Origin: an uncultured Dehalococcoidales bacterium
Lineage (GTDB): Bacteria; Chloroflexota; Dehalococcoidia; E44-bin15
Reading direction: 5' to 3'
Length of the DNA stretch: 64,000 bases
NCBI GenBank assembly: GCA_964428725.1
Contig: CAYRYW010000003.1
Span: forward strand, 2,465-66,464
Shown: positions 3,886-47,874 of the stretch, one piece after another
Position numbering within the stretch: the first letter of the stretch is position 1
How the letters are laid out: the number at the start of each line of letters is the position of its first letter
The notes under the pieces: generated by a model
Databases searched by the model: none
What the model was told of the DNA's origin: nothing
The model's input: the letters and a program-made list of their open reading frames with translations, nothing else
Program-made: the position numbers and the translations under genes

Positions 3886-3960
3886 TGGAGCCAGCGGTCG
3901 GAATTGAACCGACGACCGGCGGTTTACGAAACCGCTGCTCTACCGCTGAGCTACGCTGGC
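3886..3960 (-). tRNA. tRNA-Thr (anticodon CGU)
   Basis: Reverse complement is GCCAGCGTAGCTCAGCGGTAGAGCAGCGGTTTCGTAAACCGCCGGTCGTCGGTTCAATTCCGACCGCTGGCTCCA. It has a 7-bp acceptor stem, D arm GCTC/GAGC, anticodon stem GCGGT/ACCGC with loop TTCGTAA, T arm GTCGG/CCGAC with TTCAATT, and an encoded CCA. Confidence 0.92.
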
Positions 3961-28817: not shown

Positions 28818-31800
28818 TTATGCGGGGGCCTTGGACACCGTCCTGCAGAACACCTCCACCAGTTCCGGGTCGAACTGGGTGCCGGCGCACCGGCGTAACT
28901 CCTCGATCGCTTCTTCGCGGGTCACTACTTCGCGGTACAGACGCTTCGTGGTCATCGTATCGTAGGCATCGGCTATGCTGATGATCCTTGCTTCCAGAGG
29001 TATCTCCTCGCCCTTGAGTCCGTCCGGGTAACCGCTACCATCGTACCATTCATGGTGGTGACGTATCATAGGTATGAGTACGGAAAGCTCTTTAACATAT
29101 CCGACTATCCTGGCGCCTTCCACTGGATGCTTCTTGATAATTTCGTACTCATCTCTGTCGAGCCTGCCGGGCTTGGTAAGGATGGCATCCGGAACGCCGA
29201 GCTTTCCTATGTCGTGCAGCAGGGCAGCGGCATACACATTTGCCAGCTTTCTGGCGGTTATGCCCGCCTCTCTGGCGACTGCCTCAGTGATGGTGGCCAC
29301 CCTGCTGGAGTGTCCATAGGTGTACGGGTCTCTGGCATCTACGGTGGCTGCCAGCGCATACACCTGGTCCCTTGTCGCCATGCTCAGCACCTCAGCCGAC
29401 AGGGTATCCAGGTGGGATACCGTAATGGTTTGATTGGCGCTTGTCCTCTTGGCGTGGTAAAGGGCAGCGTCCGCCAGGAATATCAGCCCGTCACTGGTCT
29501 CCGAGTTGTCGGGGAACTGGGCTATGCCGGCACTGAATCCAATCGGCCTTTCCTGGGAAAATTGTTTGGAAATGGGGGTCTTGAGCCATTTCCCTCTCAC
29601 CCGGTCCAGCACTGCAGCAGCCCTGTCGGACTCTGTGCCCGGAAAGATTACGGCAAATTCATCCCCGCCGTAGCGAAAAACCGTATCGCTTTTGCGCAGT
29701 GACGATTTCAGTATCTGGGCGATGGATCGCAGCACGGCATCGCCGCTGGTATGGCCGAACTGGTCGTTATACTCCTTGAACCCGTCGAGGTCCAGCATGG
29801 CTATGGAGAAGCATTTGCCGTAGCGCCTCATGCGGTGCATCTCGGTCTCAAGCTCATCGTAGAAGTGGCGGCGGTTGTACACGCCGGTGAGCTCATCGGT
29901 AACCGATAGCTCCCTTGTCCTTTGCATCAGTTCTGCATTCTCGATGCCGACTGCTATCTCGCTGGATGTTGCGCTGAGGAGACTCCTGTCGTCGTAGTCG
30001 AAATCACGCCGACTGTCAGTGGATACTGCGATTATGCCGCGCACTTCCCCCTTTATCACGATGGGGTTATCGATAAACCTTCTCTTTAGGCCTTTCGATG
30101 ATTCTATTTTAGTGTAGCCTGAGAGTGCCTCCCATTGATCTTCACTCGTCAGTTTGTGCAGCACACTCTGGAATTCAGAATCGGTCAATTTGATGGTTGA
30201 GAATTGCTCCTGGTATTCCCGGGACATCCCTACATGTGCTTCAAGCACAAGCTCCTGTCTTTCCATATCCAACAGGTAGATGTAACCCCGCTCTGTGCCC
30301 ATGACATCGCATACCTTTCTGATAGCGCTGTTCAGCATCTCGGATAAGTCCAATGACTGGCTCACTGCCTGTGCCACAGCATACAGCGCCCCCGTACGCT
30401 CGGCGTTACGCTTGATTTCTTCCTGTACGCGCTTGCGATCAGTGATGTCTCTGGTGATTACCGCCATGCCTATGGGCTCTCCGTTGGCATCGCGCAGCAC
30501 GGTAACCTTGCCCTCGCCCTCGGCGGTGCTACCATCCCTTCTCAGTATCTTATATTCCAGGGAAGCGCTGCGTCCTTCCCCCAGCGCCTGCATTATGGCT
30601 TCTATGGCGCCGGCACGGGATTCACTGGTGATGAGGTCGAGGCCTTTAAGCCCGATCATCTGCTCTTTGCTGTCGTAACCATGCAGGCGGGCCGTTGCCT
30701 CGTTGACTTCAATGATGGTTCCTGTGAGGTCGGTAATGACGATGCCATCGTCGATGGAGGCGAACGCAATCTGCAATTTTCGCTCCATTTCCTGAAATGC
30801 CTTCTGCGTCTGCTTCTCCACAGTGACGTCCCTGAATGAGACCAGTCCCGCCGGCTTTCCCTGATAGTCGATCACCGCCCCGACGGCGCTTATCCATTTC
30901 TCCTCGCCGTCCTTCGTCAGCGTGCGGAACTCGTTTGCCTGCCGCAGATCCTTCAGGAACATATCCTCTATCATGATACGGCGAACCTGTTCCCTGTCGC
31001 TTGCTGGAACGAAGTCGAGCGGGTCCAGGCCTATCGTCTGTTCCGGCGAATCGAACCTATAGATCTGCGCGGCGCGCCTGTTGCACAGCGCTATCTTCAT
31101 CGTTTCAGCATCGATAACGAAGACCCCGTCGATGCTGCCTTCGAACAGGTCCCTGTATCTCTCCTCGCTCTCGCGCAGTATCACATCTGCCAGCTTGGAG
31201 TCGGTGATGTCAGCGGCATAAACCTGGATACCGATGGCCTCATCGCCCGTCTTTAGCAGGGAGCTTCTGACTCTGATCCATCGCCGCTCACCATCCCTCC
31301 TGATTATCTCAAGGTCAAAGGGTTCGACCTTACCCCCACTCATAATTTTTTTGAACTGTTGCGCTAATTCGGGCTTGTCCCTCGCATCCAACGTCATAAG
31401 CTCGTCAAGGCGCTTCCCGATTATTTGAGCCCTGTCGTATCCTGTCAATTCCTCAGTGCTCTGGTTGCAATCGATAACCTTTCCTGTTAGGTCGATAACC
31501 GAAACGGAGATCGGCGCCTCATCGAATAGACTTCGATATCTCTCCTCGCTCACTGCTAATGCTTGCTCCGCTCGCTTGCGCTCGGTGATGTCGCGGGCTA
31601 TGCCCAGCTCGCCGATGACCTGACCGCCTGCCAAGATCGGGCTGCTGGTGAATTCACCGAATATGTAATCCCCCGACTTGGACTGAATCCGCATCTCGTA
31701 GGGCGGCGGATGTTCGCCACGGAGGGAGATTTCGAATGACTGCATGGCCCCGAGCAGGTCATCGGGGTGAACGATTCCAGCGAAGGACTTACCTATCCAT

Positions 31801-34800
31801 TCGTCACGAGACCAGCCGGTGACCTTATCAAAGGCCGGGTTCAACGAGGATATGGTGCCATCCGTCGCCAGTGTGTAGATCACGTCCGGCGCCATTTCGA
31901 TGAGTCCCCGGTATCTTTCCTCGCTCTCACGCAGGGCGTCCCTCGCGCGCTTGCGCTCGATTGCCCCTCCCAGACGATCTGAGACAGCGTTAATCAAATC
32001 CCACTCCTCCTTCAGGAAAGGCCCTTCATCGCCTGCCGACATCTCTTCCGTGTAGTACACCTCTACAGTGCCGACAGGCTCACCTCGAACGCGGATATCG
32101 CTGGACAGCTTCCACGGGGTTTCCCTGAAGTTACCCGTCCTGTACTCGGTCCCCTCGGAGAAGATACGGGCGCATACGCTGTCCGGGTGCTGAAATGCAG
32201 ACACGATAGCTTCAAGGATGTCATTGAACAGCTGTTCGGGTGTATCGTACTTGTGCGCCAGGACGGTGGATATCCCGTAGAGGCAATTCAGCTCTCTTAC
32301 ACGCTCATCGAGATCATGTATGAGATGTTCCCTCTCCATCTCCGCCAGTTTTCGTTCGGTTATATCCTGCACCGTCCCGAATAACTTAACAACGCGCCCG
32401 CTCTCGTCTCTGATCGGATGCATCGAGGCCGAGAATGAAGCTATTCTCCCACCCGGCAACTTCGCCTGCAGGTCGTACTCCAATTCTTCCCCGGTTTCCA
32501 TCGCCCGCCGCACGTATTCCCGCAGTATCGCCGCCTGCTCTTCGGAATAGTAGGTCGCCTCTTCCTCCGGCGTGGGTGGACCGAGTGACGGGTCTCGCTC
32601 GTATAGTTTATACACTTCGTCAGACCATTCGATCGTCCCGCGATCAACATCGAATTCCCAGTTGCCGATTCGCCCCAGCGCCTGTGCCTCCTTCAGCCTT
32701 CGCTCGCTCTCGCGCAGCGCCTCATCAGCCAGTTTGCGTTCGGTGATATCACGTATAATCGTGATAATCCCCACTGGCTTCCCTGAGGCATCGCGCAATA
32801 GAGCGGGGCGTAATTCACAATCGAACAGTTCACCATCCGCCTTTTTGAATTTATATTCGATCCCCTGTTCACTCGTGCCTTCTTTGATCATTTCCAGCGA
32901 ATCTTTGACCAATCTCTCCCGGTCTACATACGACACGAGCTCAAACGCATCTTTGTCCAGCAATTCGTCCTTGCTGTGCCGCGTTATACTGCACAGCGCA
33001 TCGTTCATGCTGATGATCTCTCCTTCCATATCAGTTACGATCACGCCATCCACCATAGATGCGAATATCAGGCGCAGTTTCTCCTCATTCTCGCGGATTG
33101 CCTCCTCCGCCAGTTTGCGCTCGGTGACGCTCGATATGATCCTCGAGATTGCGAGGAGAAGGTCAACATCTTCAGTGGGCCAGTCGCGATGCTGGCGGCA
33201 CTCGTCAAACCCGATGAAGCCATGATAATGTCCACCGACAAAAAGTGGGACCACCAGGATTGAACGGACTCCCTGGGGCCGCAGGATCTCCTTTGCCCCT
33301 TCATCCGGGATGTCCTCTATGTCTCGGAAACAGATATTCTGTCCCTTCCGGAGTGTTTCCACCCACCATGGAGCGTTGCTGACTGGTATCCCCTGCAGGC
33401 CCTGTTTTTGAGGGAGGATGCCTTCGGCGCACCACTCCTGAGTGTTGACCATGGTATCTGTCTCAGGGTGATGCTCAAAGAGGTAAGCGCGGCTTACTGC
33501 CATTGTCTGTCCCATGGCGGCGATGCATGTGTCCTGGAACTGCTGCAGGTCCTCCGCGTCTACCGCCAGCGAGGAGATGCGGGAAAGCAGTTGTTCGTAT
33601 CCCAGCCTTCTCTGTATGGTCTCCTGCGCCAGCTTTTGCTCGGTGATGTCAGTTAAGATGCCACGTGTGCCGATAACCAGTTCCCCTTCGTATATTGGCC
33701 GGTTGGAGGCGCGTATCCAGTGGATCGCACCTGACTTCGCGATAACCCGATATTCGCCTATAGTTGACTCTCCGGAGAGGACCCTCTGGTGGCTTTCAGC
33801 AGCAGTTCTCAGATCATCTGGGTGAATGTACCCGGCAAAGTTCTGCCCGATTATTTCCGCAGGCGTGTATCCTATCAGCGATTCCACAGCCGGGCTAATA
33901 TATGTGAATGTTCCATCTGTATCGATGGTGTAAAGAACGTCGTTTATGTTCTCTACGAGGTCGCGGTATTTCTCCTCGCTGGCTCTGAGCGCCTCCTGCG
34001 CCCGCTTCTGCTCCGTGATGTCCCGCATGGCGCCGATGTAGCCGGTCGCGTTGCCTGAAGCATCGTGCAGCATGGCTATGCTGAACTCACCATCCAACTC
34101 CGTACCGTCTGCAGTCAGCATGGGGAGCTGAATACGGTTGATGAATATACTGCCTTCTGCCGCCTTCGCCATGAGCTTTGCTGCTCTATCACGGTCCCTT
34201 GTGGCGACGAAATTGAGCGCGCTTTTTCCTATGAGGTTCTCTTTACTGTAGCCTGTTATGCGGAGGGTAGCCTCATTTACCTCCAGGACATTGCCGCTCA
34301 GGTCCACCACTATCAGCCCCTCGGTGGTGGAGTCGAAGATGGTCTGCAGCTTTTCCGCTGTCTCCCGCAGCGCATTCTCAGCCTCCCAGCGGTCGGTATC
34401 ATCACGGATGTTCATGATGAAGCCTTCAATGGATGGATGGTCTAAGAGATTCTTCCCCAGTCCATCGAAGAAGCGCACCGAGCCGTCTTTGTGCAGTATG
34501 CGGAATGCATTGGGGATCGCTGTATCTTTGGTCAGGATAGCTTTGCCGAAATCGACAATAGCGCGTGGGATATCATCCGGGTGGATAAACTCAAAACCGC
34601 TTCTACCCATTATTTCTTCAGGCTTGTATCCAGTAAAACGCTGGATGGAAGGGCTGCAGTATGTAATGATTCCATCTTTGTCAGTGACGATTATGATATC
34701 AGAAGAGTTCTCGGTAATTTCCTTGAAATACTCTTCGCTCTCTCGCAGCGCCTCTTCCATCTTAGTGCTCTCGGTAATGTCCTTAACAGTGCCAATCATC

Positions 34801-35579
34801 TTATACGCTTTCCCATCCTTATCAAGAAGCGCTGTCCCCCTATCTGCCCAGAAAGCGATACTGCCGTCTTTCTTGGTAACTCGATATGTGACGTCATAAG
34901 GAGTTTGATCTAAAATGTGTTTATCAAGCAAAGCCATAACCCTATCGTGGTCTTCCGGATGAATGATATTTGCCCATGCGTCGATCGTTCTGGGGAATTT
35001 ACCCTGTGGGTATCCCAATAACGAGTCAATGTCGCCAAACCAATCCAGGGAAGCCTTCTCGATGTTCCATTCCCAGATACAGTCGCTTGTGCTTGATGCA
35101 GCTACGTGGAAGCGTTCCTCGCTCTCCCGCAGCGTCTCCTCTGCTTCTGCCAGCCTCCTCTCCGTGTCCAGTTCCTGTAATACGCGCTCCACCGCCTGCG
35201 GCAGCCGGTCGAGGAAGGTGGCATCCTTCACCAGATAATCGCGCGCGCCGAGCTTCATCAGCTCTACCGCTATCTTCTCATCCCCCAGCCCGGTGGTTAC
35301 GATGAAGGGGATTGTATGTTTCTGTTCGGCTAAGGTTTCGATAACACTGATGCCGGTCATATCGGGCAGGCGGTAGTCCAGCAGAGCCAGGTCGAAACGG
35401 CCACCAGCCACGCGGTCTATGGCATCGGCGCCGGTGAGCGCTATCTCCACCCCGAGGCCGAGGCGGCGGAGGTTTCTGTGGAGCAGCTTGGACAGAGCCT
35501 GATCGTCCTCTATGATCATAACTGTTTGGGACTGCTGCGGCTCGCCCGTGCTGCTATTTCTTAGTTTCTTCTTCTCCAT
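28818..35579 (-). CDS. Giant multidomain response regulator: REC - 4xPAS - GAF - 2xPAS - GAF-like - 4xPAS - GAF - GGDEF - HD-GYP (2253 aa)
   Basis: REC with acceptor Asp in LALLDYRLPDM. Ten roughly 125-aa PAS units each begin with an LRESEE(R/K)(Y/F)-type linker and end in DIT(E/D)RK. GGDEF domain RYGGDEF has an RKSD I-site 5 residues upstream. HD-GYP domain has HDIGK ... HHHEWYDGSGYP. Confidence 0.9.
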   Translation of the reverse strand: MEKKKLRNSSTGEPQQSQTVMIIEDDQALSKLLHRNLRRLGLGVEIALTGADAIDRVAGGRFDLALLDYRLPDMTGISVIETLAEQKHTIPFIVTTGLGDEKIAVELMKLGARDYLVKDATFLDRLPQAVERVLQELDTERRLAEAEETLRESEERFHVAASSTSDCIWEWNIEKASLDWFGDIDSLLGYPQGKFPRTIDAWANIIHPEDHDRVMALLDKHILDQTPYDVTYRVTKKDGSIAFWADRGTALLDKDGKAYKMIGTVKDITESTKMEEALRESEEYFKEITENSSDIIIVTDKDGIITYCSPSIQRFTGYKPEEIMGRSGFEFIHPDDIPRAIVDFGKAILTKDTAIPNAFRILHKDGSVRFFDGLGKNLLDHPSIEGFIMNIRDDTDRWEAENALRETAEKLQTIFDSTTEGLIVVDLSGNVLEVNEATLRITGYSKENLIGKSALNFVATRDRDRAAKLMAKAAEGSIFINRIQLPMLTADGTELDGEFSIAMLHDASGNATGYIGAMRDITEQKRAQEALRASEEKYRDLVENINDVLYTIDTDGTFTYISPAVESLIGYTPAEIIGQNFAGYIHPDDLRTAAESHQRVLSGESTIGEYRVIAKSGAIHWIRASNRPIYEGELVIGTRGILTDITEQKLAQETIQRRLGYEQLLSRISSLAVDAEDLQQFQDTCIAAMGQTMAVSRAYLFEHHPETDTMVNTQEWCAEGILPQKQGLQGIPVSNAPWWVETLRKGQNICFRDIEDIPDEGAKEILRPQGVRSILVVPLFVGGHYHGFIGFDECRQHRDWPTEDVDLLLAISRIISSVTERKLAEEAIRENEEKLRLIFASMVDGVIVTDMEGEIISMNDALCSITRHSKDELLDKDAFELVSYVDRERLVKDSLEMIKEGTSEQGIEYKFKKADGELFDCELRPALLRDASGKPVGIITIIRDITERKLADEALRESERRLKEAQALGRIGNWEFDVDRGTIEWSDEVYKLYERDPSLGPPTPEEEATYYSEEQAAILREYVRRAMETGEELEYDLQAKLPGGRIASFSASMHPIRDESGRVVKLFGTVQDITERKLAEMEREHLIHDLDERVRELNCLYGISTVLAHKYDTPEQLFNDILEAIVSAFQHPDSVCARIFSEGTEYRTGNFRETPWKLSSDIRVRGEPVGTVEVYYTEEMSAGDEGPFLKEEWDLINAVSDRLGGAIERKRARDALRESEERYRGLIEMAPDVIYTLATDGTISSLNPAFDKVTGWSRDEWIGKSFAGIVHPDDLLGAMQSFEISLRGEHPPPYEMRIQSKSGDYIFGEFTSSPILAGGQVIGELGIARDITERKRAEQALAVSEERYRSLFDEAPISVSVIDLTGKVIDCNQSTEELTGYDRAQIIGKRLDELMTLDARDKPELAQQFKKIMSGGKVEPFDLEIIRRDGERRWIRVRSSLLKTGDEAIGIQVYAADITDSKLADVILRESEERYRDLFEGSIDGVFVIDAETMKIALCNRRAAQIYRFDSPEQTIGLDPLDFVPASDREQVRRIMIEDMFLKDLRQANEFRTLTKDGEEKWISAVGAVIDYQGKPAGLVSFRDVTVEKQTQKAFQEMERKLQIAFASIDDGIVITDLTGTIIEVNEATARLHGYDSKEQMIGLKGLDLITSESRAGAIEAIMQALGEGRSASLEYKILRRDGSTAEGEGKVTVLRDANGEPIGMAVITRDITDRKRVQEEIKRNAERTGALYAVAQAVSQSLDLSEMLNSAIRKVCDVMGTERGYIYLLDMERQELVLEAHVGMSREYQEQFSTIKLTDSEFQSVLHKLTSEDQWEALSGYTKIESSKGLKRRFIDNPIVIKGEVRGIIAVSTDSRRDFDYDDRSLLSATSSEIAVGIENAELMQRTRELSVTDELTGVYNRRHFYDELETEMHRMRRYGKCFSIAMLDLDGFKEYNDQFGHTSGDAVLRSIAQILKSSLRKSDTVFRYGGDEFAVIFPGTESDRAAAVLDRVRGKWLKTPISKQFSQERPIGFSAGIAQFPDNSETSDGLIFLADAALYHAKRTSANQTITVSHLDTLSAEVLSMATRDQVYALAATVDARDPYTYGHSSRVATITEAVAREAGITARKLANVYAAALLHDIGKLGVPDAILTKPGRLDRDEYEIIKKHPVEGARIVGYVKELSVLIPMIRHHHEWYDGSGYPDGLKGEEIPLEARIISIADAYDTMTTKRLYREVVTREEAIEELRRCAGTQFDPELVEVFCRTVSKAPA

Positions 35580-36033
35580 GGGCGGTTTCCCCGTATATCT
35601 TCGGTACCTTCACTACAAGCAGATAGAGGCCTAGTTTCTTGATAACCTCTATGAACTTCTCGTAGTCGAAAGGCTTGGTAATGTAAGAGCTGCAGCCCAG
35701 CTTATAGCACTGATCAACTTCACGCGGATCGTCCGTAGTCGTGATTATGATTACGGGCAGTTTGCGCAGTTCTTCATCCTTCTTTAGCTGTCTCAGGACC
35801 TCGATGCCATCAACCCTGGGCATGCGGATATCCAGCAATAGAAGATACTGAGTGCCTCGCAAGCGATGTGGTGCATCTCCCCTGTACATCAGGAAATCTA
35901 GTATTTCACTGCCGTCTTTGAAAGCGATTATGGGGTTAGCCAGGCCGGCGCGCTTCAGATTCTTAGTGATGAGAGCCGTGTGCCCCTCATTGTCCTCGGC
36001 GATAAGTATCACCACTCCTTCGCTATCAGCCAT
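35554..36033 (-). CDS. Single-domain response regulator (CheY-like receiver)
   Basis: VILIAEDNEGH...LLLLDIRMP..DG...L......P.I..T...D......G..SYI.KP. Preferred start is ATG 36033 (AAGGAG 7 nt upstream; the ORF-track start is 36051). The 3' end overlaps the giant gene start by 26 nt. Confidence 0.85.
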   Translation of the reverse strand: MADSEGVVILIAEDNEGHTALITKNLKRAGLANPIIAFKDGSEILDFLMYRGDAPHRLRGTQYLLLLDIRMPRVDGIEVLRQLKKDEELRKLPVIIITTTDDPREVDQCYKLGCSSYITKPFDYEKFIEVIKKLGLYLLVVKVPKIYGETAHGEEETKK

Positions 36034-36057
36034 CTTCATGCTCCTTTTCATGATTTC

Positions 36058-37296
36058 CTAAGCGGCGGGCAGGGACACGAAGAACCTGCACCCTTTACCC
36101 GGTTCAGAATGAAGCCATATCCTCCCATTGTGGCGATCGACAATCATTCTCACTATAGTGAGTCCCAATCCTTCTCCGCTGCCGGCAGTGGGGTTGAGGC
36201 GCTCGAATATCTCGAATATCTTCTCATGATACTCCGGCGCAATGCCGATGCCGTTATCCTCCACGCAATAGACGGCTTGTTTATCTTCTTTCGTGCCGTT
36301 GATCTTGATTATGCCTGGCCTGTTGGAGTCAAGGAATTTGAGCGCGTTATCAATAAGGTTGGAGAAGAGCTGGTTTATCCGCGTCTCGTTCCCCAGGCAT
36401 GGGGGCAAGTCCACTACCTCCAGCTTTACGCCCTTCTCTCTAATACTGTATTCGAAGGTGTGGATCACGCTCTCCATAAGCTTGTTCATATTAAGGCGTT
36501 TGGTATCGAGTTCATCGCGTCCCAACCGGGAAAGCTGCAGCAGCCCTTCCAGCAGCGAGTTTATCTTGTATGCGCTGGCGTGTATGTATTGGAGTGCGCT
36601 AGGGATATCCTCATTCAGAGGCGCGGAGAGCTGTTCACGTACTGTGTTGGGGATGTCTTCGATCTTAAGCACTGATTGCATTTGTTCTACGGATTGACCC
36701 ATCTCTCTGGCGAAGCCCTCGATGTTGACCAGCGGCGACCTCAGGTCGTGTGAGGCAGCATACAGTACCTGTTCCAGCTCTTTCGTTTTCTCTTCCAGCG
36801 ATTTAAGCAGGCGCTCGCGCTCCTCCTCAGCCTGCTTGCGCTCGGTGATATCGCGCTCGGTGGAGACGATTCCGATTGGTTTTCCGTCGTCCACCAGTTT
36901 CGTCACCGTCAGCCACACATCAAGAATGCGCCCGTCTTTGGTCACCCGCTGTGTCTCAAACGACGTTACCGCTTCGCCCGCTATCAGACGGCGGGTAAAC
37001 TCCTTTTGCTCTGACACCTTGTCCGGAGGCGAAAGTTGATCAATGTTCATCCCAAGCGCTTCCGCCTCGCTATAGCCAAACATCAGTTCAGCGCCGCGGT
37101 TCCAGGTGGTGATCCGGCCATCAATGTCCTGTATGATAATCGCATCGTTCGAGTCTCTGACCACCGTCGCCAGGCGTCTTGAAGTCTCCTCCGCCCGATT
37201 GCGCTCGGCGGTGTCCTCTTTTGGCCTGGCTGCACTCTGTTTCACATTTTGCAGCTCGGCGCCGAGTGTCCGTTTCGCTTTTGCCTTTTCCTTCAT
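36058..37296 (-). CDS. PAS-domain sensor histidine kinase (cytoplasmic)
   Basis: One PAS (DAIIIQDIDGRITTWNRGAE..FGY), coiled coil, H-box ASHDLRSPL, N-box and G1/G2 blocks (VEDNGIGI, GSGEGLGL). No TM segments. Confidence 0.9.
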   Translation of the reverse strand: MKEKAKAKRTLGAELQNVKQSAARPKEDTAERNRAEETSRRLATVVRDSNDAIIIQDIDGRITTWNRGAELMFGYSEAEALGMNIDQLSPPDKVSEQKEFTRRLIAGEAVTSFETQRVTKDGRILDVWLTVTKLVDDGKPIGIVSTERDITERKQAEEERERLLKSLEEKTKELEQVLYAASHDLRSPLVNIEGFAREMGQSVEQMQSVLKIEDIPNTVREQLSAPLNEDIPSALQYIHASAYKINSLLEGLLQLSRLGRDELDTKRLNMNKLMESVIHTFEYSIREKGVKLEVVDLPPCLGNETRINQLFSNLIDNALKFLDSNRPGIIKINGTKEDKQAVYCVEDNGIGIAPEYHEKIFEIFERLNPTAGSGEGLGLTIVRMIVDRHNGRIWLHSEPGKGCRFFVSLPAA

Positions 37297-37306
37297 CTCA
37301 CGAACA

Positions 37307-37510
37307 CTACCGGTTGATCCTACCCGCCTCGTTCATTATCCTGTCGATATCCTTCAGCGTAAAAAGCCGCCAGCCGCGCCTGTCCTTGTGCGCCACATCC
37401 TCGATGACGCCTTCGCTGAGCCAGCGGAAAAAGGTAGCTTTGCTTATACCCGCCTTGCGGCAGGCTTCCGACGTTCGGTAATAGGTCTGACCGTTAAGTT
37501 TTACTGTCAT
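37307..37510 (-). CDS. Small MerR/excisionase-type helix-turn-helix DNA-binding protein (67 aa)
   Basis: YYRTSEACRKAGISKATFFRWLSEG.I pattern. 10 nt upstream of the kinase gene. Confidence 0.65.
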   Translation of the reverse strand: MTVKLNGQTYYRTSEACRKAGISKATFFRWLSEGVIEDVAHKDRRGWRLFTLKDIDRIMNEAGRINR

Positions 37511-37707
37511 CTTTCACCGCTCTTGAGAATACTTGAGACGACTTACATGGATGATAATATAACCATACAAATAGTTGAGTGGGGGTACTTATGTACACAA
37601 CCTGTCTGTCGTGCGTTATCGCCCGGTGTTCTGTAGTTTTGAGTCACCACCTTTCGGCGGTTTTAGCTTTTTATATATTTATCGAAAATATATAGTTAGA
37701 GTGGTGT

Positions 37708-37736
37708 ATATTATCACTGCAGAATCTGTATGTCAA
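37708..37736 (-). promoter_or_regulatory. Sigma70-type promoter for the HTH-kinase-REC-giant RR unit
   Basis: Minus strand reads TTGACA (37736-37731), a 17-nt spacer, then TAATAT (37713-37708). This predicts a roughly 190-nt leader before ATG 37510. Confidence 0.5.
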
Positions 37737-37751
37737 GTGCCCTGAACAGGC

Positions 37752-38450
37752 CTAGTCTTCATCTTCCCCGGAGGCACCGCAGGCCCGGCAGAACGCCTCC
37801 ACCAGCACAGGGTCGAACTGCTTCTCTGAGCACCACCTCAGCTCCTCAAGCGCATCCTCCTGTGACAGCACCTCACGATAGCCACGCGGCGTGGTCATGG
37901 TATCGTAGGCGTCGGCTATGCACAGTACCCTGGCGCCGAGGGGTATGGCCTCGCCTTTCAGTCCGTCGGGGTACCCCGTGCCGTCGTACCGCTCGTGGTG
38001 GTGCCGTATCAGGGGCACCAGCGGCGACAGTTCCTTCACGAAACCGACTATCCGTGCCCCTTCAGCAGCATGTGTCTGCATTATCTTCCACTCTTCGCCC
38101 GATAGATTATCGGGCTTGGTCAAGATGGCATCGGGTACGCCTACCTTGCCGATGTCGTGCAGCAGGGCGGCGTCGCGTAAATCGGACAGCTGTTTCTCGG
38201 AAAGGCCTGCGGCTTCGCCGATCGTCTCCGCTATCTCGGCAACACCCTTCGAGTGGGTGAGGGTATACGGGTCTTTGGCATCCACCGTTGCCGCCAGGGC
38301 GATTATCTGGTTCCGGGTCGCGGTGGCCAGCACCTCCGCCGGTATCATCTCCACATGACCGGCGACAGCCGAATCCACCTCGGCGACACGCCTGCGCATC
38401 TCCACCAGCTCAGCTATAAGTTGCTCTTTGGTCTTATCCTCATCTTTCAT
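37752..38450 (-). CDS. Stand-alone HD-GYP domain protein (c-di-GMP phosphodiesterase family) with N-terminal coiled coil
   Basis: HDIGKVGVPDAILTKP ... RHHHERYDGTGYPDGLKGE.IP ... ADAYD.M. Aligns nearly colinearly with the C-terminal 200 aa of the giant protein. Confidence 0.88.
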   Translation of the reverse strand: MKDEDKTKEQLIAELVEMRRRVAEVDSAVAGHVEMIPAEVLATATRNQIIALAATVDAKDPYTLTHSKGVAEIAETIGEAAGLSEKQLSDLRDAALLHDIGKVGVPDAILTKPDNLSGEEWKIMQTHAAEGARIVGFVKELSPLVPLIRHHHERYDGTGYPDGLKGEAIPLGARVLCIADAYDTMTTPRGYREVLSQEDALEELRWCSEKQFDPVLVEAFCRACGASGEDED

Positions 38451-38604
38451 TTAATGGGCTACCTTTCATGAAATTGATGATTGCTCTGGGATATCCACTT
38501 CTTTAACGGATGTAGCTCTTCTTTTACTACTTATTCTGTGACATGTCAAGCCCGCGTTCCATTCATTTGTGCATTCATCACCCGTTATGTTTAAACTCCT
38601 AGTG

Positions 38605-38973
38605 TTACCTTTCCAGCACCACCTCCAGAGTTTCCAGAAGATCCCCTGTATTTATCGGCTTGGTGAGGTAAGCCGCTGCCCCGCAGTTCATGGCGCGTAT
38701 TGTATCCTCTGTAGACGTGTGGCTAGAGAAAACCACCACCAGCGTTTCCGGGTAAGCTTTTTTCATGCGTGCTACCAGCTTCAAGCACTCGTCTTTATGT
38801 TTGTCAATATCGACCAGGGCAAGCTTAAAGCGTCCGGCACGCGCCTTCTCCATCGCTTCTTTACTGTCCCTGACTGCCTCTACCTGATATCCTTTACTGG
38901 AAAGTGCCAGCGCCAGGCTGCGTCTTAAGCCTTCATCGTGTTCAACAATTAGAATGCCTTCTATCTTAACCAT
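38605..38973 (-). CDS. Single-domain response regulator (receiver)
   Basis: ILIVEHDEG ... LALVDID ... VVVFSS ... YLTKP. Start moved to ATG 38973 to avoid a 44-nt overlap with the upstream cyclase gene. Confidence 0.8.
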   Translation of the reverse strand: MVKIEGILIVEHDEGLRRSLALALSSKGYQVEAVRDSKEAMEKARAGRFKLALVDIDKHKDECLKLVARMKKAYPETLVVVFSSHTSTEDTIRAMNCGAAAYLTKPINTGDLLETLEVVLER

Positions 38974-39001
38974 CTCCAACACCCCCTTCACAAGCCTTTC
39001 T

Positions 39002-41614: not shown

Positions 41615-41627
41615 GTGATTCTCCTTC

Positions 41628-42104
41628 TTATTTTGATGGGAGCTTTACCATGGTCAGCCAGAAATTATCAATGGCAGTAATAACATTTACGAAATCCTCG
41701 AAATCTATCGGCTTTTTGATATAGCAGTTGGCATGACGCTGATACATGTTGAACACATCCTCCGCCGCGCTCGATGTCGTCAGTACCACCACCGGGATGC
41801 GCCTCAGCGCCTTATCGTTCTTAATCTCCTCCAGCACCTCACGCCCATCCTTCTTCGGCAGATTCAGGTCCAGCAGTATGAGGTCCGGGGTTGGTGCATT
41901 GTTGTACTTGCCCTGATGATTTAGGAAAGCCAGAGCTTCAGCGCCGTCTTCAACGACGTTCAAACTGTTGGTGCCCCTGCTCTCTTTGAACGCCTCGCGT
42001 GTCAGCCGCACGTCGCCGGGGTTATCCTCCACCAGCAGGATATCGATAGCGTTGTCCGGATGGTGGGGCCTCATTCTGCAGTTCGTAGTTTGCGTAGCGT
42101 TCAT
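41628..42104 (-). CDS. Single-domain response regulator (Rcp1-like receiver)
   Basis: ILLVEDNPGD..L..EAF, LILLDLNLPKKDG.EVL..IK......IPVVVLT.S......YIKKP. GAGGAGG upstream of ATG 42104. Confidence 0.85.
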   Translation of the reverse strand: MNATQTTNCRMRPHHPDNAIDILLVEDNPGDVRLTREAFKESRGTNSLNVVEDGAEALAFLNHQGKYNNAPTPDLILLDLNLPKKDGREVLEEIKNDKALRRIPVVVLTTSSAAEDVFNMYQRHANCYIKKPIDFEDFVNVITAIDNFWLTMVKLPSK

Positions 42105-42163
42105 TGTCCTTTGCCTCCTCTATCTCTTCCCTGAAACCCTGTTATTAAAATCCGATTAATCCT

Positions 42164-42466
42164 TTATTTTCTGCGATCACTGCTTCGTCTCTCCCCCAGC
42201 CTCTTCCACTGGAGTGCGAAGACGGTGGCGGAATATATTATTACAGCAGCTGTCGCTATGATTTCTATGTATAAGATTGCCGAATTAGGTTCCTCGAAAC
42301 ACACCTCTCCATGTATCAGGATCAGTATCATATGAATACACCAGGCTATGGCTGTTGCGATCAGGAGCAGTTGGGCTGCCAGCACCGACATGGAAAACCT
42401 GAACCTTCTATTGAATCGCCTGCTATCAGCCGAACTGCCTTGCTGGTCACCCCTTCTGTCGTTCAT
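42164..42466 (-). CDS. Small two-TM membrane protein
   Basis: ATG 42466 with GGAGG 7 nt upstream. Basic N- and C-termini flank two hydrophobic helices. The ORF-track start 42526 lacks an RBS. Confidence 0.5.
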   Translation of the reverse strand: MNDRRGDQQGSSADSRRFNRRFRFSMSVLAAQLLLIATAIAWCIHMILILIHGEVCFEEPNSAILYIEIIATAAVIIYSATVFALQWKRLGERRSSDRRK

Positions 42467-42550
42467 GTTCAGATCCTCCAGATTTTTTTGTTCTGTGGGT
42501 GGGGTCCCCGGGTGGGGACCCCACATGCCACAGCGTCGGTGAATCGTGGA

Positions 42551-43972
42551 CTACTTATACCATCTCCTTTGAACCATTCGCCTTGCCAGCAGATAGGATA
42601 CTGCTACCAGGCCAAGGGCTTCAGCAGTTATAGCGCCAAGGACCCACCAGCTCACACGCGTAGCGGTGTCCGCTTCGACTGTCCCCTCGCCATCTTCGGT
42701 AGCATCTTCAGCTCCATTGCTTATCCCGGCCTCACCGCTGGTCGGCTCACCGACTTCTTCGGCGGCCTCCTCGGCGGCTTCTTCGGTGACATCAGACGCT
42801 TCTTCTTCAGCATCATCTGCCACATCTTCGGTGTCGCTGCTGCCACTTGGAACATAACCACCGCCACCGCCACCGCCACCAACATATGCTATCCGCGTCG
42901 CAGTCGGCGTGGGTGTTGGTGTCGGCTCGATAACGATGGTCAACGTCGGCGTCGGCTCAACGACAACGGTCTCGGTAGGCGTTGGCGTCGGCTCAACGAC
43001 AATGGTCTCCGTTGGAGTGGGCGTTGGCTCAGGCGGGAAGCCGTAATGCAGTATGGTGCCAGCATCGCCTACAACGAAGATATCGGTTTCAGAGGTTCCA
43101 TGGATGCCCAGCAGGTCCACGCCGGTGGAGGTGTCAATAGATGACAGTTTGCTGCCATCATAGTGAACTATAATACCTCCATCTGCCACACCAAACATGT
43201 TGGATATAGAATCTCCCCATACATCGTAGATCACTGCTGTTTCTCCGATCATTAGCGTTTCACACTCTCTACCATCGTAGTATATTACGATGGCGACTTC
43301 ACCTGCGGCGACTTCACCTACAGCAACAACGCTGATAGGTGAAAAGCCCCAAACGCCATACAGGTTGTCGCTAGTTCCACTGTCGATAAGCTCTATGCTT
43401 GACCCATCGAATGCAGCGAACAAACCATTATAACCAACTGCAAAGACGTCGTATGGGGAGTATCCCCAAACATCATAGAAGCACACCATGCCGCCCTCGC
43501 CCATTTGCCAGTCGCTGCCATCGTAGTGCGCTAGAAAAGTGTGACCTACTACGAATACCTGTGATGAATGGCACCAGACGCCATACAGCGCCTTCGTGGT
43601 GCCCAGGTCGATAGCGTTCCACGAGCTGCCGTCATAGTGCAGGACAACGCCATTGATGCCGACGGCGTAGACGTCAGTGGATGAGGACCCCCAGATGCCA
43701 TGGAGGTCGCTGGTAGTGCCGCTGTCCATCTGACTCCAGCTGTTGCCATTGTAGTGAAGGATGGTACCCTCCTCACCAACGGCGAAGACGTCGGTGGGTG
43801 AAGCCGCCCACACGTTTGTGAGGGCATTCGTTGTGCCGCTGTCCATGGTGCACCATTGCGGTGGTGCAACGGCTGCTTCGGCACCGGTCATGGGTGCCAC
43901 CATCGCCATGGAAACCGCTACTATTACAGCGGCTACAATAATACCTAATTTAATTTTTGTCTTAGCGAACAT
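42551..43972 (-). CDS. Secreted/cell-surface beta-propeller repeat protein with Thr/Pro-rich stalk, poly-Gly, acidic segment and C-terminal TM anchor
   Basis: Signal-like N-terminus MFAKTKIKLGIIVAAVIVAVSMAMVAPMTGAEA. About 8 repeats of W...DSGTT..L.G(V/I)WG.S..DV(F/Y)AVG..G.(I/V).HYDGS.W. Stalk EPTPTPTETIVV x3, then GGGGGGGG, a D/E-rich segment, and a terminal TM plus RRMVQRRWYK. Start set at ATG 43972 (GGAGAAGGAGG 7 nt upstream). The 14 extra codons of the ORF-track start lie in the riboswitch. Confidence 0.8.
   Translation of the reverse strand: MFAKTKIKLGIIVAAVIVAVSMAMVAPMTGAEAAVAPPQWCTMDSGTTNALTNVWAASPTDVFAVGEEGTILHYNGNSWSQMDSGTTSDLHGIWGSSSTDVYAVGINGVVLHYDGSSWNAIDLGTTKALYGVWCHSSQVFVVGHTFLAHYDGSDWQMGEGGMVCFYDVWGYSPYDVFAVGYNGLFAAFDGSSIELIDSGTSDNLYGVWGFSPISVVAVGEVAAGEVAIVIYYDGRECETLMIGETAVIYDVWGDSISNMFGVADGGIIVHYDGSKLSSIDTSTGVDLLGIHGTSETDIFVVGDAGTILHYGFPPEPTPTPTETIVVEPTPTPTETVVVEPTPTLTIVIEPTPTPTPTATRIAYVGGGGGGGGYVPSGSSDTEDVADDAEEEASDVTEEAAEEAAEEVGEPTSGEAGISNGAEDATEDGEGTVEADTATRVSWWVLGAITAEALGLVAVSYLLARRMVQRRWYK
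42921..43032. repeat. Tandem 30-45-nt repeats encoding the (V)EPTPTPTET(I/V)V stalk
   Basis: GTCGGCTC(G/A)A(T/C)(A/G)ACGA... units start at 42921, 42951 and 42987. The adjacent (GGTGGC)n at 42858-42881 encodes poly-Gly. Confidence 0.8.
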
Positions 43973-43991
43973 TGTAGTTCCTCCTTCTCCT

Positions 43992-44073
43992 GATTTCGGT
44001 AACCCATCCGCCATAGTTTTGCTATGGAGTACAGGCTTTGCGCACCCGCTTTTCAGCAGGTTTGCCTTTGTCG
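43992..44073 (-). promoter_or_regulatory. c-di-GMP-I (GEMM-I) riboswitch aptamer, copy 3 (abuts the SD of the propeller gene)
   Basis: Minus-strand RNA CGACAAAGGCAAACCUGCUGAAAAGCGGGUGCGCAAAGCCUGUACUCCAUAGCAAAACUAUGGCGGAUGGGUUACCGAAAUC. It has GGCAAACC, a GAAA-capped hairpin (CCUGCU/AGCGGG), GCGCAAAGCC, a second hairpin (CCAUAG/CUAUGG) and GGGUUACCGA, in the same order as V. cholerae Vc2. It ends 1 nt before GGAGAAGGAGG. Confidence 0.8.
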
Positions 44074-44120
44074 ACTCAATTGTGCTATCCTACCACCTCC
44101 TTTGATGTCGATCCGTTTTT

Positions 44121-44157
44121 TAATAAGAACGCCTTCAAGGGTCCACATGAAGGCGTT
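44121..44157 (-). terminator. Hairpin terminator following aptamer 2
   Basis: RNA AACGCCUUCA-UGUGGACCCU-UGAAGGCGUU (10-bp perfect stem) followed by CUUAUUA. The U-tract is weak. Confidence 0.5.
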
Positions 44158-44173
44158 AAATAATAGCTCGTAT

Positions 44174-44257
44174 GATTCGGTAGCCTGGGCCCACAGTCAT
44201 AATAGCTGTGGGTCACAGCTTTGCGTCACCACCTTCAAAGTGGATTTGCCTTTGTCG
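44174..44257 (-). promoter_or_regulatory. c-di-GMP-I (GEMM-I) riboswitch aptamer, copy 2
   Basis: RNA CGACAAAGGCAAAUCCACUUUGAAGGUGGUGACGCAAAGCUGUGACCCACAGCUAUUAUGACUGUGGGCCCAGGCUACCGAAUC. Contains GGCAAAUCC, hairpin CCAC../..GUGG, GACGCAAAGC, the 7-bp hairpin CCCACAG/CUGUGGG, and CUACCGAA. Confidence 0.8.
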
Positions 44258-44280
44258 TTCCTAATTATTTTTTAAGGTAC

Positions 44281-44319
44281 AAAAAAGCGCCCTTCAGCAG
44301 AATTCTGCTAAAAGGCGCC
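44281..44319 (-). terminator. Strong intrinsic terminator following aptamer 1
   Basis: RNA GCGCCUUUUAGCAG-AAUU-CUGCUGAAGGGCGC (14-bp stem including G-U pairs) followed by UUUUUUG. Confidence 0.8.
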
Positions 44320-44337
44320 ATAACTAACTTCTCGAGT

Positions 44338-44418
44338 CTTCGGGAGCCCGGCTTTTCCACGTATATCTGGATGTCCGTGGCTTTGCGCCACTGCCTTCTA
44401 GCAGATTTGCCTTTATCG
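44338..44418 (-). promoter_or_regulatory. c-di-GMP-I (GEMM-I) riboswitch aptamer, copy 1 (promoter-proximal)
   Basis: RNA CGAUAAAGGCAAAUCUGCUAGAAGGCAGUGGCGCAAAGCCACGGACAUCCAGAUAUACGUGGAAAAGCCGGGCUCCCGAAG. Contains GGCAAAUC, hairpin CUGC/GCAG, GGCGCAAAGCC, hairpin CCACG/CGUGG, and a CUCCCGAAG tail. This is the most divergent of the three at the 3' end. Confidence 0.7.
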
Positions 44419-44473
44419 ATGCCTTTATTTGTTTTTAAGGAGCTTTATAATATTCAATCTTTAGTATGCTCTA

Positions 44474-44502
44474 ATTATACACCTTAATTGCTGTTTTGTC
44501 AA
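44474..44502 (-). promoter_or_regulatory. Consensus sigma70-type promoter driving the riboswitch leader
   Basis: Minus strand reads TTGACA (44502-44497), a 17-nt spacer, then TATAAT (44479-44474). Both hexamers are perfect consensus. Predicted TSS is near 44467, about 50 nt before aptamer 1. Confidence 0.65.
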
Positions 44503-44623: not shown

Positions 44624-45073
44624 CTACCGAAAAACAATCTGGCTCAACACCAGGAAAACAATGGCCATGGCAGCTAGGAAGTAGTAAATGCTCGGGGCAG
44701 GACCCCACCAGGAACCGTGCCACCAGATCTCCGACTTTCTGAATTTCCTTATCCCATAATTCGGATTAAATATGAACCAGGCGAAATCTTCCGCGAGGAA
44801 GAAGGTGTACAGCAACCCCCAGATCAACAGTTCCAACTTTGGAGACCATTCGACGAAAAGGAGGGGGAAATGGAACATCAGGATCAGGAAGATGGTCATC
44901 CATGTATGATAGCCCGTCAGTGGCCGCCCGCCGAGGAGCCTCACCACCCACCCCTTGGTCTTGCGCCAGCACGGCAGGTCGGCGGCCCAGCCACGCTTGC
45001 CCTCGATCTGGATCTCCAGGTTGGCGAAAACTATGCCCAGTAAAATCGCAGACAGGATCTGGATGGCTAACAA
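44624..45073 (-). CDS. Hypothetical integral membrane protein (4 TM, Trp-rich)
   Basis: Four hydrophobic helices. 27 nt downstream of acxC on the same strand. No family recognised. Confidence 0.6.
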   Translation of the reverse strand: MLAIQILSAILLGIVFANLEIQIEGKRGWAADLPCWRKTKGWVVRLLGGRPLTGYHTWMTIFLILMFHFPLLFVEWSPKLELLIWGLLYTFFLAEDFAWFIFNPNYGIRKFRKSEIWWHGSWWGPAPSIYYFLAAMAIVFLVLSQIVFR

Positions 45074-45100
45074 CGTCGCGCTCTCTTAATGTGTCTGAGT

Positions 45101-45661
45101 TTATTTGCTCTTGAGTTCCCTACCCCACTCCCGTGTCGTCTCGCAGGTCATATCCCTGAACTCCTTCTGGTCGGGGAGGGGTCGCTTCAGCCAGTCAAGG
45201 TAGAAGGCATCGATATCGGGCAAGACGTCGAAGATAATAGGACAACCTACCGGCACTGCCTCCACCATGAGCAGGCTGGCGCACCCGGGGCAATAATACT
45301 CCCGGACTTCACACAGGTCGGGATTTGGGCAGCGCAGGCCGGGGTATACCTCTTCCAGCTTGTCGACCGTATTGCGAACGAATATGAGCGCGCTGAGCTT
45401 CCAGTTGCGGCGCCAGTCGCCAAACTCGTGCCCACAGTCGCACTTAACCACACGCTCATCGCCCTTCTGCACAATGTAGAGATGTTCTCCCAGTGGTAAG
45501 AGAATACGCTCTGTGAAACCGACACGCTCCTGAAGTATATCGACATATTTATCGAAGCGATCGTCGTCCTTGGGATTGCTCATAATCTCCTTGACCTTGT
45601 TCCAGGGCAGCCTGCCGTCGAACATATCTTTAAGGTCTTCTTTGTTATACGAGATAGACAT
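45101..45661 (-). CDS. acxC: Acetone/acetophenone carboxylase gamma subunit family protein
   Basis: G.LPW.KV..I ... V.KCDCGHEFGDWR.NWK ... REYYCPGC..LL.VE, the zinc-binding Cys pattern of Acetone_carb_G. Follows the two hydantoinase-type subunits. Confidence 0.8.
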   Translation of the reverse strand: MSISYNKEDLKDMFDGRLPWNKVKEIMSNPKDDDRFDKYVDILQERVGFTERILLPLGEHLYIVQKGDERVVKCDCGHEFGDWRRNWKLSALIFVRNTVDKLEEVYPGLRCPNPDLCEVREYYCPGCASLLMVEAVPVGCPIIFDVLPDIDAFYLDWLKRPLPDQKEFRDMTCETTREWGRELKSK

Positions 45662-45670
45662 TTTAACACC

Positions 45671-47860: not shown

Positions 47861-47874
47861 GCCCGCCTCCATTA

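Follow-up and report, generated by a model that had tools for sequence, protein, structure and literature searches.

A triple GEMM-I riboswitch leader and a predicted c-di-GMP feedback circuit in an uncultured Dehalococcoidales bacterium

Can a set of genes that make and degrade a second messenger be placed under the control of that messenger through their own RNA leader? The question is raised by a run of minus-strand genes between positions 44502 and 28818 of a 64,000-nucleotide (nt) stretch of contig CAYRYW010000003.1 from an uncultured Dehalococcoidales bacterium (hereafter the window), in which putative enzymes of cyclic di-GMP (c-di-GMP) metabolism follow a leader with GEMM-I (c-di-GMP-I) riboswitch aptamers. 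A preliminary description of the sequence had read the region as a riboswitch-headed supercluster of eleven genes and suggested a closed regulatory loop that gates at least the first five of them. The leader is a genuine triple GEMM-I array, and the genes behind it recur in conserved order in related loci. Our overall model, in which the region is a conserved island for c-di-GMP signalling, has two or more transcription units and contains a riboswitch-gated loop, we hold with a probability of roughly 55%.

Related loci are referred to by handle. L089 and L090 came from a metagenome scan with a five-sequence alignment of the propeller protein encoded first in the cluster, which gave 80 propeller-family loci. 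L169, a 13.4-kb metagenome contig, was reached through the context of the cyclase homologue P0124 and L170 through that of P0122; L171, L173 and L175 were reached through the family of a small two-transmembrane (2TM) protein.

The leader and its predicted expression platforms

The leader and the start of the first gene comprise the following features, where SD denotes a Shine-Dalgarno sequence.

44474-44502, minus: sigma-70 promoter TTGACA-17 nt-TATAAT, 12/12 match to consensus
44339-44421, minus: c-di-GMP-I aptamer 1, Rfam 51.4 bits, G at the G20-equivalent position
44280-44319, minus: predicted intrinsic terminator 1, 15-bp stem and U6 (UUUUUU), 20 nt after aptamer 1
44176-44260, minus: c-di-GMP-I aptamer 2, Rfam 40.3 bits, G at the G20-equivalent position
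44122-44157, minus: terminator-like hairpin 2 (AACGCCUUCA...UGAAGGCGUU), 10-bp stem, weak U tail CUUAUU
44091-44104, minus: purine-rich, SD-like spacer CAAAGGAGGUGGUA, located after terminator 2 and before aptamer 3, also kept in L090 and L169
43995-44076, minus: c-di-GMP-I aptamer 3, Rfam 50.5 bits, 4 nt before the ribosome-binding site (RBS), without terminator
42551-43990, minus: SD (43990-43980) and surface propeller gene, 473 amino acids (aa), orthologues in L169 (53% identity), L089 and L090

We scored the whole 64-kb window with the RF01051 (c-di-GMP-I, GEMM-I) covariance model at its gathering score of 35 bits and obtained exactly three matches, all on the minus strand (E-values 4e-7 to 2e-4), so that each of the three aptamers proposed earlier lies above the Rfam threshold. 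The GCAAAG junction and the ACCGA tail are conserved in these aptamers. Ligand contacts were assigned according to PMC9481103 and the Vc2 structure. The ligand-selectivity position (alignment column 11) is G in all three; the role of this G20-equivalent position, with G for c-di-GMP and A for cGAMP (3′,3′-cyclic GMP-AMP), is taken from PMC9481103. We analysed covariation over 13 aptamers from the window and related loci and counted 13 pairs with double changes, compared with 7.9 ± 1.7 in shuffles. The covariation score was 0.335 vs 0.194 for shuffled alignments and at most 0.11 for slid controls, and 81% of cells are paired in this alignment, which was fitted to the model and thereby favours structure. 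The compensatory changes support the two-hairpin aptamer fold at the level of sequence.

The promoter lies 53 nt upstream of aptamer 1 and precedes a leader of about 500 nt, in which the aptamers are sense-oriented within the 5′ untranslated region (UTR); an identical perfect promoter sits before both aptamer arrays of L169. Within the array, aptamers 1 and 2 each have a predicted platform of their own, and aptamer 3 is followed by the RBS. The propeller gene starts at 43972, behind the SD GGAGAAGGAGG and 22 nt after aptamer 3, a start that is also called in an independent assembly. The protein collection contains the source genome as an exact copy, on contigs that reach 136 kb. Named homologues are mostly labelled 'Chloroflexota bacterium', a weak hint as to lineage. 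The ATG at 44014 was rejected as the start codon, as it falls inside aptamer 3. The spacing from aptamer to SD and ATG is the same in L089, L090 and L169.

Two further observations concern the leader and its relatives. (i) A purine-rich SD-like element, AAAGGAGGUGG, is kept about 25 nt 5′ of RBS-proximal aptamers (L090 ~1095-1110; L169 ~5686-5700 and ~5816-5830) and is followed by an ATG in L169 and L090; the window copy has no ATG. The spacer may be left over from a duplication of aptamer-SD units. We considered and dropped a leader peptide initiating there, because the ATG is not conserved in the window. (ii) The selectivity position is A in L090 1131-1215 and L169 1080-1163 and C in L169 5841-5924; with this mix of A, C and G, some arrays of the relatives may sense more than one cyclic dinucleotide.

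We derived the sign of the switches from predicted structures. Each terminator has a 5′ strand that can pair with part of its own aptamer, namely the loop and 5′ strand of the first hairpin, which gives a candidate antiterminator in aptamer-terminator units 1 and 2 (antiterminator strands 44404-44392 and 44244-44232). In unit 1 this duplex has a predicted energy of −24.5 kcal/mol compared with −12.2 ± 2.2 kcal/mol for shuffles (z −5.5; 0/500 shuffles as good), and in unit 2 the corresponding comparison gives z −3.6 (2/500 as good). In unit 2 the antiterminator pairing is the minimum-free-energy fold, in unit 1 it comes within 1.5 kcal/mol of that fold, and transcripts cut before the terminator 3′ strand fold into the antiterminator pairing. 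Terminators 1 and 2 begin about 20 nt past their aptamers without overlapping them, and a ligand-locked aptamer therefore cannot block terminator formation. On these folding predictions, aptamers 1 and 2 are probably OFF switches. For aptamer 3, folding predicts no SD-sequestering helix and leaves the SD free of pairing in every predicted state; the sole anti-SD candidate, CCUGUACUCC, lies in the second hairpin and is weak (−9.6 kcal/mol).

The same operon might instead be headed by ON switches, in which case c-di-GMP would induce the surface protein and the cyclase in a positive-feedback commitment switch. Surface and adhesion factors are usually induced by high c-di-GMP, and the best anti-SD candidate of aptamer 3 lies in the second hairpin, where ligand binding would free the SD. 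Many GEMM-I representatives are predicted to be ON switches (PMC1950547), and the Bacillus thuringiensis triplet gives digital control of expression (PMC4759541). In ON-type GEMM-I switches, however, the 5′ strand of the terminator overlaps the 3′ side of the aptamer (PMC1950547), which is not the case for terminators 1 and 2 of the window. Their 5′ strands pair with aptamer-internal strands, and a ligand-locked aptamer cannot prevent such a terminator from forming. We therefore regard the ON sign as unlikely.

Gene order, transcription units and related loci

Behind the propeller gene, the cluster continues with the following features.

42493-42533, minus: GC-rich hairpin (GUGGGGUCCCC/GGGGACCCCAC) between cistrons, immediately behind the propeller stop, without U tract
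42164-42466, minus: small 2TM protein gene, 100 aa, family of 48 homologues in 5.8 billion proteins
41628-42104, minus: stand-alone receiver (REC), 158 aa, Pfam, 54% identical to REC169 of L169
39002-41614, minus: REC-3xPAS-GAF-GGDEF cyclase with I-site (RKTD...GGDEF), 870 aa, orthologues in L169, L170 and L089 (N-terminus only)
38605-38973, minus: stand-alone REC, 122 aa from ATG 38973 or, with a start at 39045, 146 aa
37752-38450, minus: stand-alone HD-GYP (HD_5), 232 aa, orthologues of 79-84% identity immediately behind the cyclase gene of both L169 and L170
37708-37736, minus: second promoter-like site TTGACA-17-TAATAT with extended TG, 10/12
37629-37677, minus: degenerate half-aptamer, 24.5 bits with our own model, Rfam 25.3 bits and thus below the gathering score of 35
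37307-37510, minus: small MerR/excisionase-type (HTH_17-like) helix-turn-helix (HTH) protein, 67 aa, orthologues in L169 (73%) and L171 (67%)
36058-37296, minus: cytoplasmic PAS-HisKA-HATPase histidine kinase, 412 aa, Pfam and motifs
35554-36051, minus: stand-alone REC, 165 aa, Pfam
28818-35579, minus: giant REC-10xPAS-2xGAF(+1 further module)-GGDEF(I-site)-HD-GYP protein, 2253 aa, Pfam and motifs

The co-oriented open reading frames (ORFs) after the leader are as first described; their count is ten ORFs plus the leader. Comparison of gene order in related genomes, which the preliminary description had proposed, is positive in L169, L089 and L170 and looser in L173 and L175. L169 first carries a promoter, two aptamers each with a terminator, a kinase, a REC and a REC-GAF-HD-GYP gene. 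It then carries a promoter, three aptamers above the Rfam threshold and a fourth found with our own model, followed by propeller, 2TM, REC-PAS-GAF-GGDEF, HD-GYP, MerR-type HTH and PAS-rich genes. Identities to the window are 53% for the propeller, 78% for the 2TM protein, 42% for the cyclase, 79% for HD-GYP and 73% for the HTH protein, and the gap between the 2TM gene and the REC-...GGDEF gene is 18 nt. L170 keeps the HD-GYP gene (84% identical) after the cyclase. In L089, a GEMM-I aptamer (58.4 bits) abuts the SD of a propeller gene whose product has a signal peptide and a C-terminal anchor of the window type. There the 2TM gene is followed 36 nt later by an ORF that begins with MKVLLVQDNQGDARLIREML and corresponds to the window cyclase's N-terminus. 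In L173 and L175 the 2TM gene adjoins REC-HD-GYP and PAS-rich genes, and in L171 it adjoins kinases and an HTH_17 gene, the latter preceded by an intact GEMM-I aptamer.

A chance juxtaposition in a genome rich in PAS, GGDEF and REC genes, with the riboswitch belonging to the first gene only, would account for several findings. Minus-strand co-orientation spans ~21.4 kb to 50 kb, well past the cluster on both sides, so that the orientation of the cluster genes is uninformative. Homologues of the PAS-GAF-GGDEF-HD-GYP type occur elsewhere as orphans: the best matches P0123, P0127 and P0128 are not syntenic and lie among methyltransferase and oxidative-stress genes. The contexts of P0008 and P0040, the best propeller matches, are likewise not syntenic. 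GEMM-I aptamers accompany only 2 of the 80 propeller-family loci (L089 and L090), and GEMM-I as a general feature of the propeller family was rejected on this count. A scan of a genome collection with the 870-aa cyclase, for which exact 8-mers were needed, returned GGDEF-level paralogues only, and an exact look-up of the window HD-GYP protein returned no match. Against a chance arrangement, the gene order recurs in L169, L170 and L089 with orthologues of 42-84% identity, and the rare 2TM family (48 members) adjoins REC-HD-GYP or GGDEF genes in five distinct loci. Protein identities of 42-79% make it unlikely that these are assemblies of the same strain. Synteny thus largely refutes a chance arrangement, which we consider very improbable. 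Because the order recurs in L169, L089 and L170 and, less strictly, in L173 and L175, the riboswitch array, the surface protein, the 2TM protein and the c-di-GMP enzymes are, on sequence evidence, not linked by chance.

How far transcription from the leader extends is a separate matter. The gaps between the genes from propeller to HD-GYP are 84 nt (propeller-2TM), 59 nt (2TM-REC), 13 nt (REC-cyclase), about 28 nt (cyclase-REC) and 154 nt (REC-HD-GYP). Between the leader and the REC-PAS-GAF-GGDEF gene there is no room for a promoter, and no canonical terminator is predicted on the minus strand from 43972 to 28818, apart from a weak intragenic match. From the propeller to the third REC gene the genes are thus co-directional with short gaps, interrupted only by the hairpin without U tract, and we infer that they are co-transcribed. 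The 154-nt gap with a TTGACA box before the stand-alone HD-GYP gene is present as described earlier, with the box at 38549-38544. A 241-nt gap after the HD-GYP gene holds the promoter-like site at 37736-37708 (10/12), in agreement with the promoter proposed before the small HTH gene, and for this reason we assign two or more transcription units. Behind this site, the HTH, kinase, REC and giant genes are spaced by 10 nt, 6 nt and then a 26-nt overlap. The promoter-like site and the degenerate half-aptamer behind it speak against a single riboswitch-headed 15.7-kb unit.

Control by the array could also end at the propeller gene, perhaps including the 2TM gene, if the hairpin after the propeller stop ends or processes the transcript; there would then be no closed loop. 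This hairpin (GGUGGGG...CCCCACC, 11-15 bp) is strong and recurs with compensatory changes right after the propeller stop in the window, L169 (7325-7360) and L089 (1707-1740). In L090, what comes after a propeller fragment and a truncated 2TM gene is a degenerate aptamer, a hairpin resembling a terminator, an intact aptamer and a further propeller gene, and not a set of signalling genes. Moreover, GEMM riboswitches commonly control surface and adhesin genes (PMC1950547, PMC9481103). The hairpin lacks a U tract, however, unlike the leader terminators of the same locus, and may be an mRNA stabiliser or a partial attenuator. It is separated by about 27 nt from the 2TM start, the gaps from the 2TM gene to the cyclase measure 18-59 nt without any promoter-like site, and the order of 2TM followed by REC-GGDEF is conserved in three loci. 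Restriction of control to the propeller gene is accordingly improbable in our assessment, and read-through into the cyclase gene is preferred.

The two proteins encoded first behind the leader, the propeller and the 2TM protein, matched no Pfam or NCBIfam family. The AlphaFold2 model of the propeller (22 homologues) has a predicted local confidence (pLDDT) above 90 at residues 39-311, with 28 strands in seven blades, and its best match in the PDB is Ycf48 (TM-score 0.70 on target). The chain consists of an N-terminal signal helix, the propeller, a disordered linker that is PT-rich and acidic, and a C-terminal transmembrane anchor (VSWWVLG...RRWYK), consistent with the surface beta-propeller proposed earlier. 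The 2TM family has invariant Cys, Gln and Trp residues. In L171, L173 and L175 the gene before the 2TM gene encodes not a propeller but another secreted protein. The anchor of the propeller C-terminus (42551-42700) recurs in these unrelated proteins (L171 8585-9814, L173 8773-9945, L175 8947-9987) as VSWW/VNWW-x-(L/W)G, a transmembrane helix and an Arg-rich tail, and their genes directly precede those of the 2TM family. Since unrelated secreted proteins encoded before 2TM genes share one anchor, the sequences suggest that the 2TM protein is a dedicated partner of the anchor signal in sorting, anchoring or signalling.

The surroundings of the cluster are unrelated to signalling. Upstream, an acetone-carboxylase/hydantoinase-like operon occupies 44624-50019 on the minus strand; its last gene encodes a 149-aa membrane protein, and a terminator-like hairpin lies at 44653-44639. 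Downstream is ClpC (26172-28631, minus). A tRNA gene lies at 3889-3960 on the minus strand. In L175, positions 8300-8390 hold a c-di-GMP-I-GGC variant (RF03167, 77 bits) with a terminator before a different surface protein gene, which is followed by the 2TM gene and a REC-HD-GYP-REC gene.

Signalling proteins and the proposed circuit

The domain tally given earlier (five REC, 14 PAS, one kinase, two GGDEF with I-site and two HD-GYP) is reproduced by Pfam and motif checks. The PAS domains (Pfam) divide into ten in the 2253-aa giant, three in the 870-aa cyclase and one in the kinase; the ten of the giant were confirmed by cutting the protein into modules, together with a PAS_7 at 1607-1719 from the Pfam scan of the protein. 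Of four GAF domains proposed, Pfam sees three. The fourth, residues 1077-1205 of the giant (window 31965-32351, minus; ~130 aa), matches no Pfam or NCBIfam entry and is an uncharacterised sensor module. Its motif RELNCLYGIS is conserved in the PAS-rich gene that follows the HTH gene of L169.

For the GGDEF domains we looked for GG[DE]EF, for the metal/GTP motif DxDxFKxxND and, five residues upstream, for an RxxD I-site, all of which are present in the 870-aa protein (RKTDPVFRYGGDEF; Pfam E-value 1.7e-41) and in the giant (RKSDTVFRYGGDEF; 1.8e-45), as befits putative c-di-GMP synthases. Assignment to the Hypr (cGAMP-making) type was dropped because both cyclases have Glu, not Ser/Thr, nine residues after NRR, which we take to be the Hypr selectivity site. 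The HD-GYP motifs are intact in the 232-aa protein (HDIGK and HHERYDGTGYP; HD_5 E-value 6.6e-37) and in the giant (HDIGK and HHEWYDGSGYP; 2.7e-39), both being candidate phosphodiesterases. The stand-alone HD-GYP (37752-38450) and the corresponding domain of the giant (28818-29500) share 60% identity, and the two GGDEF regions are also paralogous; judging by these paralogous pairs, modules seem to have been duplicated and shuffled as the island grew. The acceptor Asp is present in all five REC domains, as is the conserved Lys, whose context is K[PDG]: KP in each of the three stand-alone receivers, KG in the cyclase of 870 aa and KD in the giant.

The kinase has intact H, N, G1 and G2 boxes (HDLRSP, NLIDNA, DNGIG, GSGEGL). 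The preliminary description would have this one kinase fan out to several receivers; relatives carry additional kinases in the same neighbourhood. The half-aptamer before the HTH-kinase unit keeps the first GEMM-I hairpin with GAAA loop and both tails, but has mutated G-C pairs at the junction and has lost the second hairpin. It is probably a decayed, non-functional riboswitch relic, a reading that goes with the intact aptamers found in relatives before kinase operons (L169) and before the HTH gene (L171), and the kinase unit of this genome is probably no longer gated by c-di-GMP. In L169 (1015-1550), a perfect promoter and two GEMM-I aptamers precede the kinase-REC-REC-GAF-HD-GYP genes, a link between riboswitch and phosphodiesterase that is more direct than in the window.

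From these features we propose the following circuit. In unit 1 (44502 to ~37752), the consensus promoter would drive a ~500-nt leader with three putatively independent c-di-GMP-I riboswitches. Without ligand, the terminator 5′ strands would pair with the first aptamer hairpins to form antiterminators and permit read-through, so that at low c-di-GMP the surface propeller, its 2TM partner, the receivers and the phosphorylation- and PAS/GAF-gated cyclase would be made, probably together with the sensor-less HD-GYP protein. Unit 2 (37736-28818), with its own promoter and the only kinase of the cluster, would supply the phosphorylation input. Phosphorylation of the cyclase, by this or another kinase, and its PAS/GAF inputs would raise c-di-GMP until the switches close. 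The ligand-locked aptamers 1 and 2 would then release their terminators, and rising c-di-GMP would stop transcription at two successive points, for a steep, 'digital' OFF response. A steep threshold is expected of independent tandem switches (PMC9481103, PMC4759541). Because its own product would shut off its mRNA, the cyclase would be negatively autoregulated, in addition to allosteric inhibition through the I-site. Shut-off of a co-transcribed HD-GYP gene would add a positive component. The closed loop proposed at the outset is thus retained in so far as a triple GEMM-I leader is followed by neither a canonical terminator nor room for a promoter up to the cyclase; its sign, which had been left unstated, is probably OFF according to folding.

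Several points weigh against this circuit. The OFF logic rests on secondary-structure prediction, and at aptamer 1 the terminator and antiterminator states are nearly isoenergetic (−52.1 vs −50.6 kcal/mol). Terminator 2 has a poor U tract; the homologue of this hairpin in L169 has a better one. Three of the four terminator units of L169 have no significant antiterminator complementarity within the Rfam aptamer bounds. The chief structural caveat is the conserved post-propeller hairpin, which could terminate or process the transcript and thereby weaken downstream control. The 154-nt gap and TTGACA before the HD-GYP gene mean that this gene may be expressed alone, and close homologues of the giant occur in other genomes in unrelated contexts.

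Relation to known systems

If the loop works as proposed, it would be a clear natural case of a messenger that silences transcription of its own synthase through serial RNA switches. The RNA layer would stand on top of phosphorylation, PAS/GAF sensing and I-site inhibition, in a compact system for setting a c-di-GMP threshold. Synteny also ties a surface propeller with a distinctive anchor and a rare 2TM protein to c-di-GMP and provides a functional handle in an uncultivated lineage. A broader and more speculative reading, which we think doubtful, is a lineage-wide modular cyclic-dinucleotide homeostat, with arrays of 2-4 GEMM-I aptamers gating messenger enzymes and a new surface-protein module, and with mixed-ligand arrays and a band-pass response as possibilities. 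If it holds, (i) the 2TM partner could act as a new factor in sorting or anchoring, or as an effector in the membrane, (ii) the G/A/C-mixed arrays of relatives may compute on more than one cyclic dinucleotide, and (iii) the OFF switches and a differently acting RBS-proximal aptamer could yield a band-pass response in the window. Interest would grow with experimental proof of the loop, of the anchor/2TM module or of mixed-specificity arrays in relatives.

The individual components are all known, and no long-standing question is resolved. What is new is that a multi-gene order is conserved in an uncultivated lineage, that two uncharacterised protein families go with it and that its predicted topology is autoregulatory. 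The earlier statement that the architecture is undescribed was too strong, as GEMM-I before GGDEF, HD-GYP, PAS and kinase genes, tandems and triplets have all been published (PMC1950547, PMC9481103, PMC4759541). GEMM elements have been found upstream of PAS, histidine-kinase, HD-GYP, GGDEF and membrane or surface genes since their discovery (Weinberg et al. 2007, PMC1950547), and one third of the delta-proteobacterial copies are in tandem (PMC1950547). That survey lists associations gene by gene, whereas in the window a whole order (array-surface protein-2TM-cyclase-HD-GYP-HTH-kinase) is conserved across loci.

The catalogue of class-I riboswitches contains 347 doublets and 12 triplets (PMC9481103), and one triplet has been characterised, Bc3-5 in the 5′ UTR of cspABCDE of Bacillus thuringiensis (PMC4759541). 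Like Bc3-5 and the catalogued triplets, the window leader has three complete class-I aptamers in one 5′ UTR behind one promoter; it likewise has separate expression platforms (predicted here for aptamers 1 and 2), and a more stringent digital response would be expected. In contrast to them, it belongs to a different, uncultivated lineage and precedes genes for a propeller, a 2TM protein and c-di-GMP enzymes. Its third aptamer has no terminator and abuts the RBS, its predicted sign is OFF, and its relative L169 has a fourth aptamer-like copy.

CmrRST of Clostridioides difficile, which encodes two response regulators and a kinase, resembles the window in that a c-di-GMP riboswitch with its own promoter heads a two-component-type operon with extra internal promoters (PMC8844915). 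In contrast to the window, CmrRST has a single class-II ON riboswitch, an invertible element and DNA-binding regulators. It lacks enzymes of c-di-GMP metabolism and therefore has no direct messenger feedback.

At the protein level, PleD and WspR are REC-GGDEF proteins with an I-site, and RpfG is a REC-HD-GYP protein. The window enzymes share with them the fusion of a receiver to GGDEF or HD-GYP, product inhibition through an RxxD I-site and control by a partner kinase, features that we predict here from domains and motifs. They differ from PleD, WspR and RpfG in their additional PAS/GAF arrays and in the combination of GGDEF and HD-GYP in one 2253-aa protein, and the window adds three stand-alone receivers and an RNA layer on the cyclase gene.

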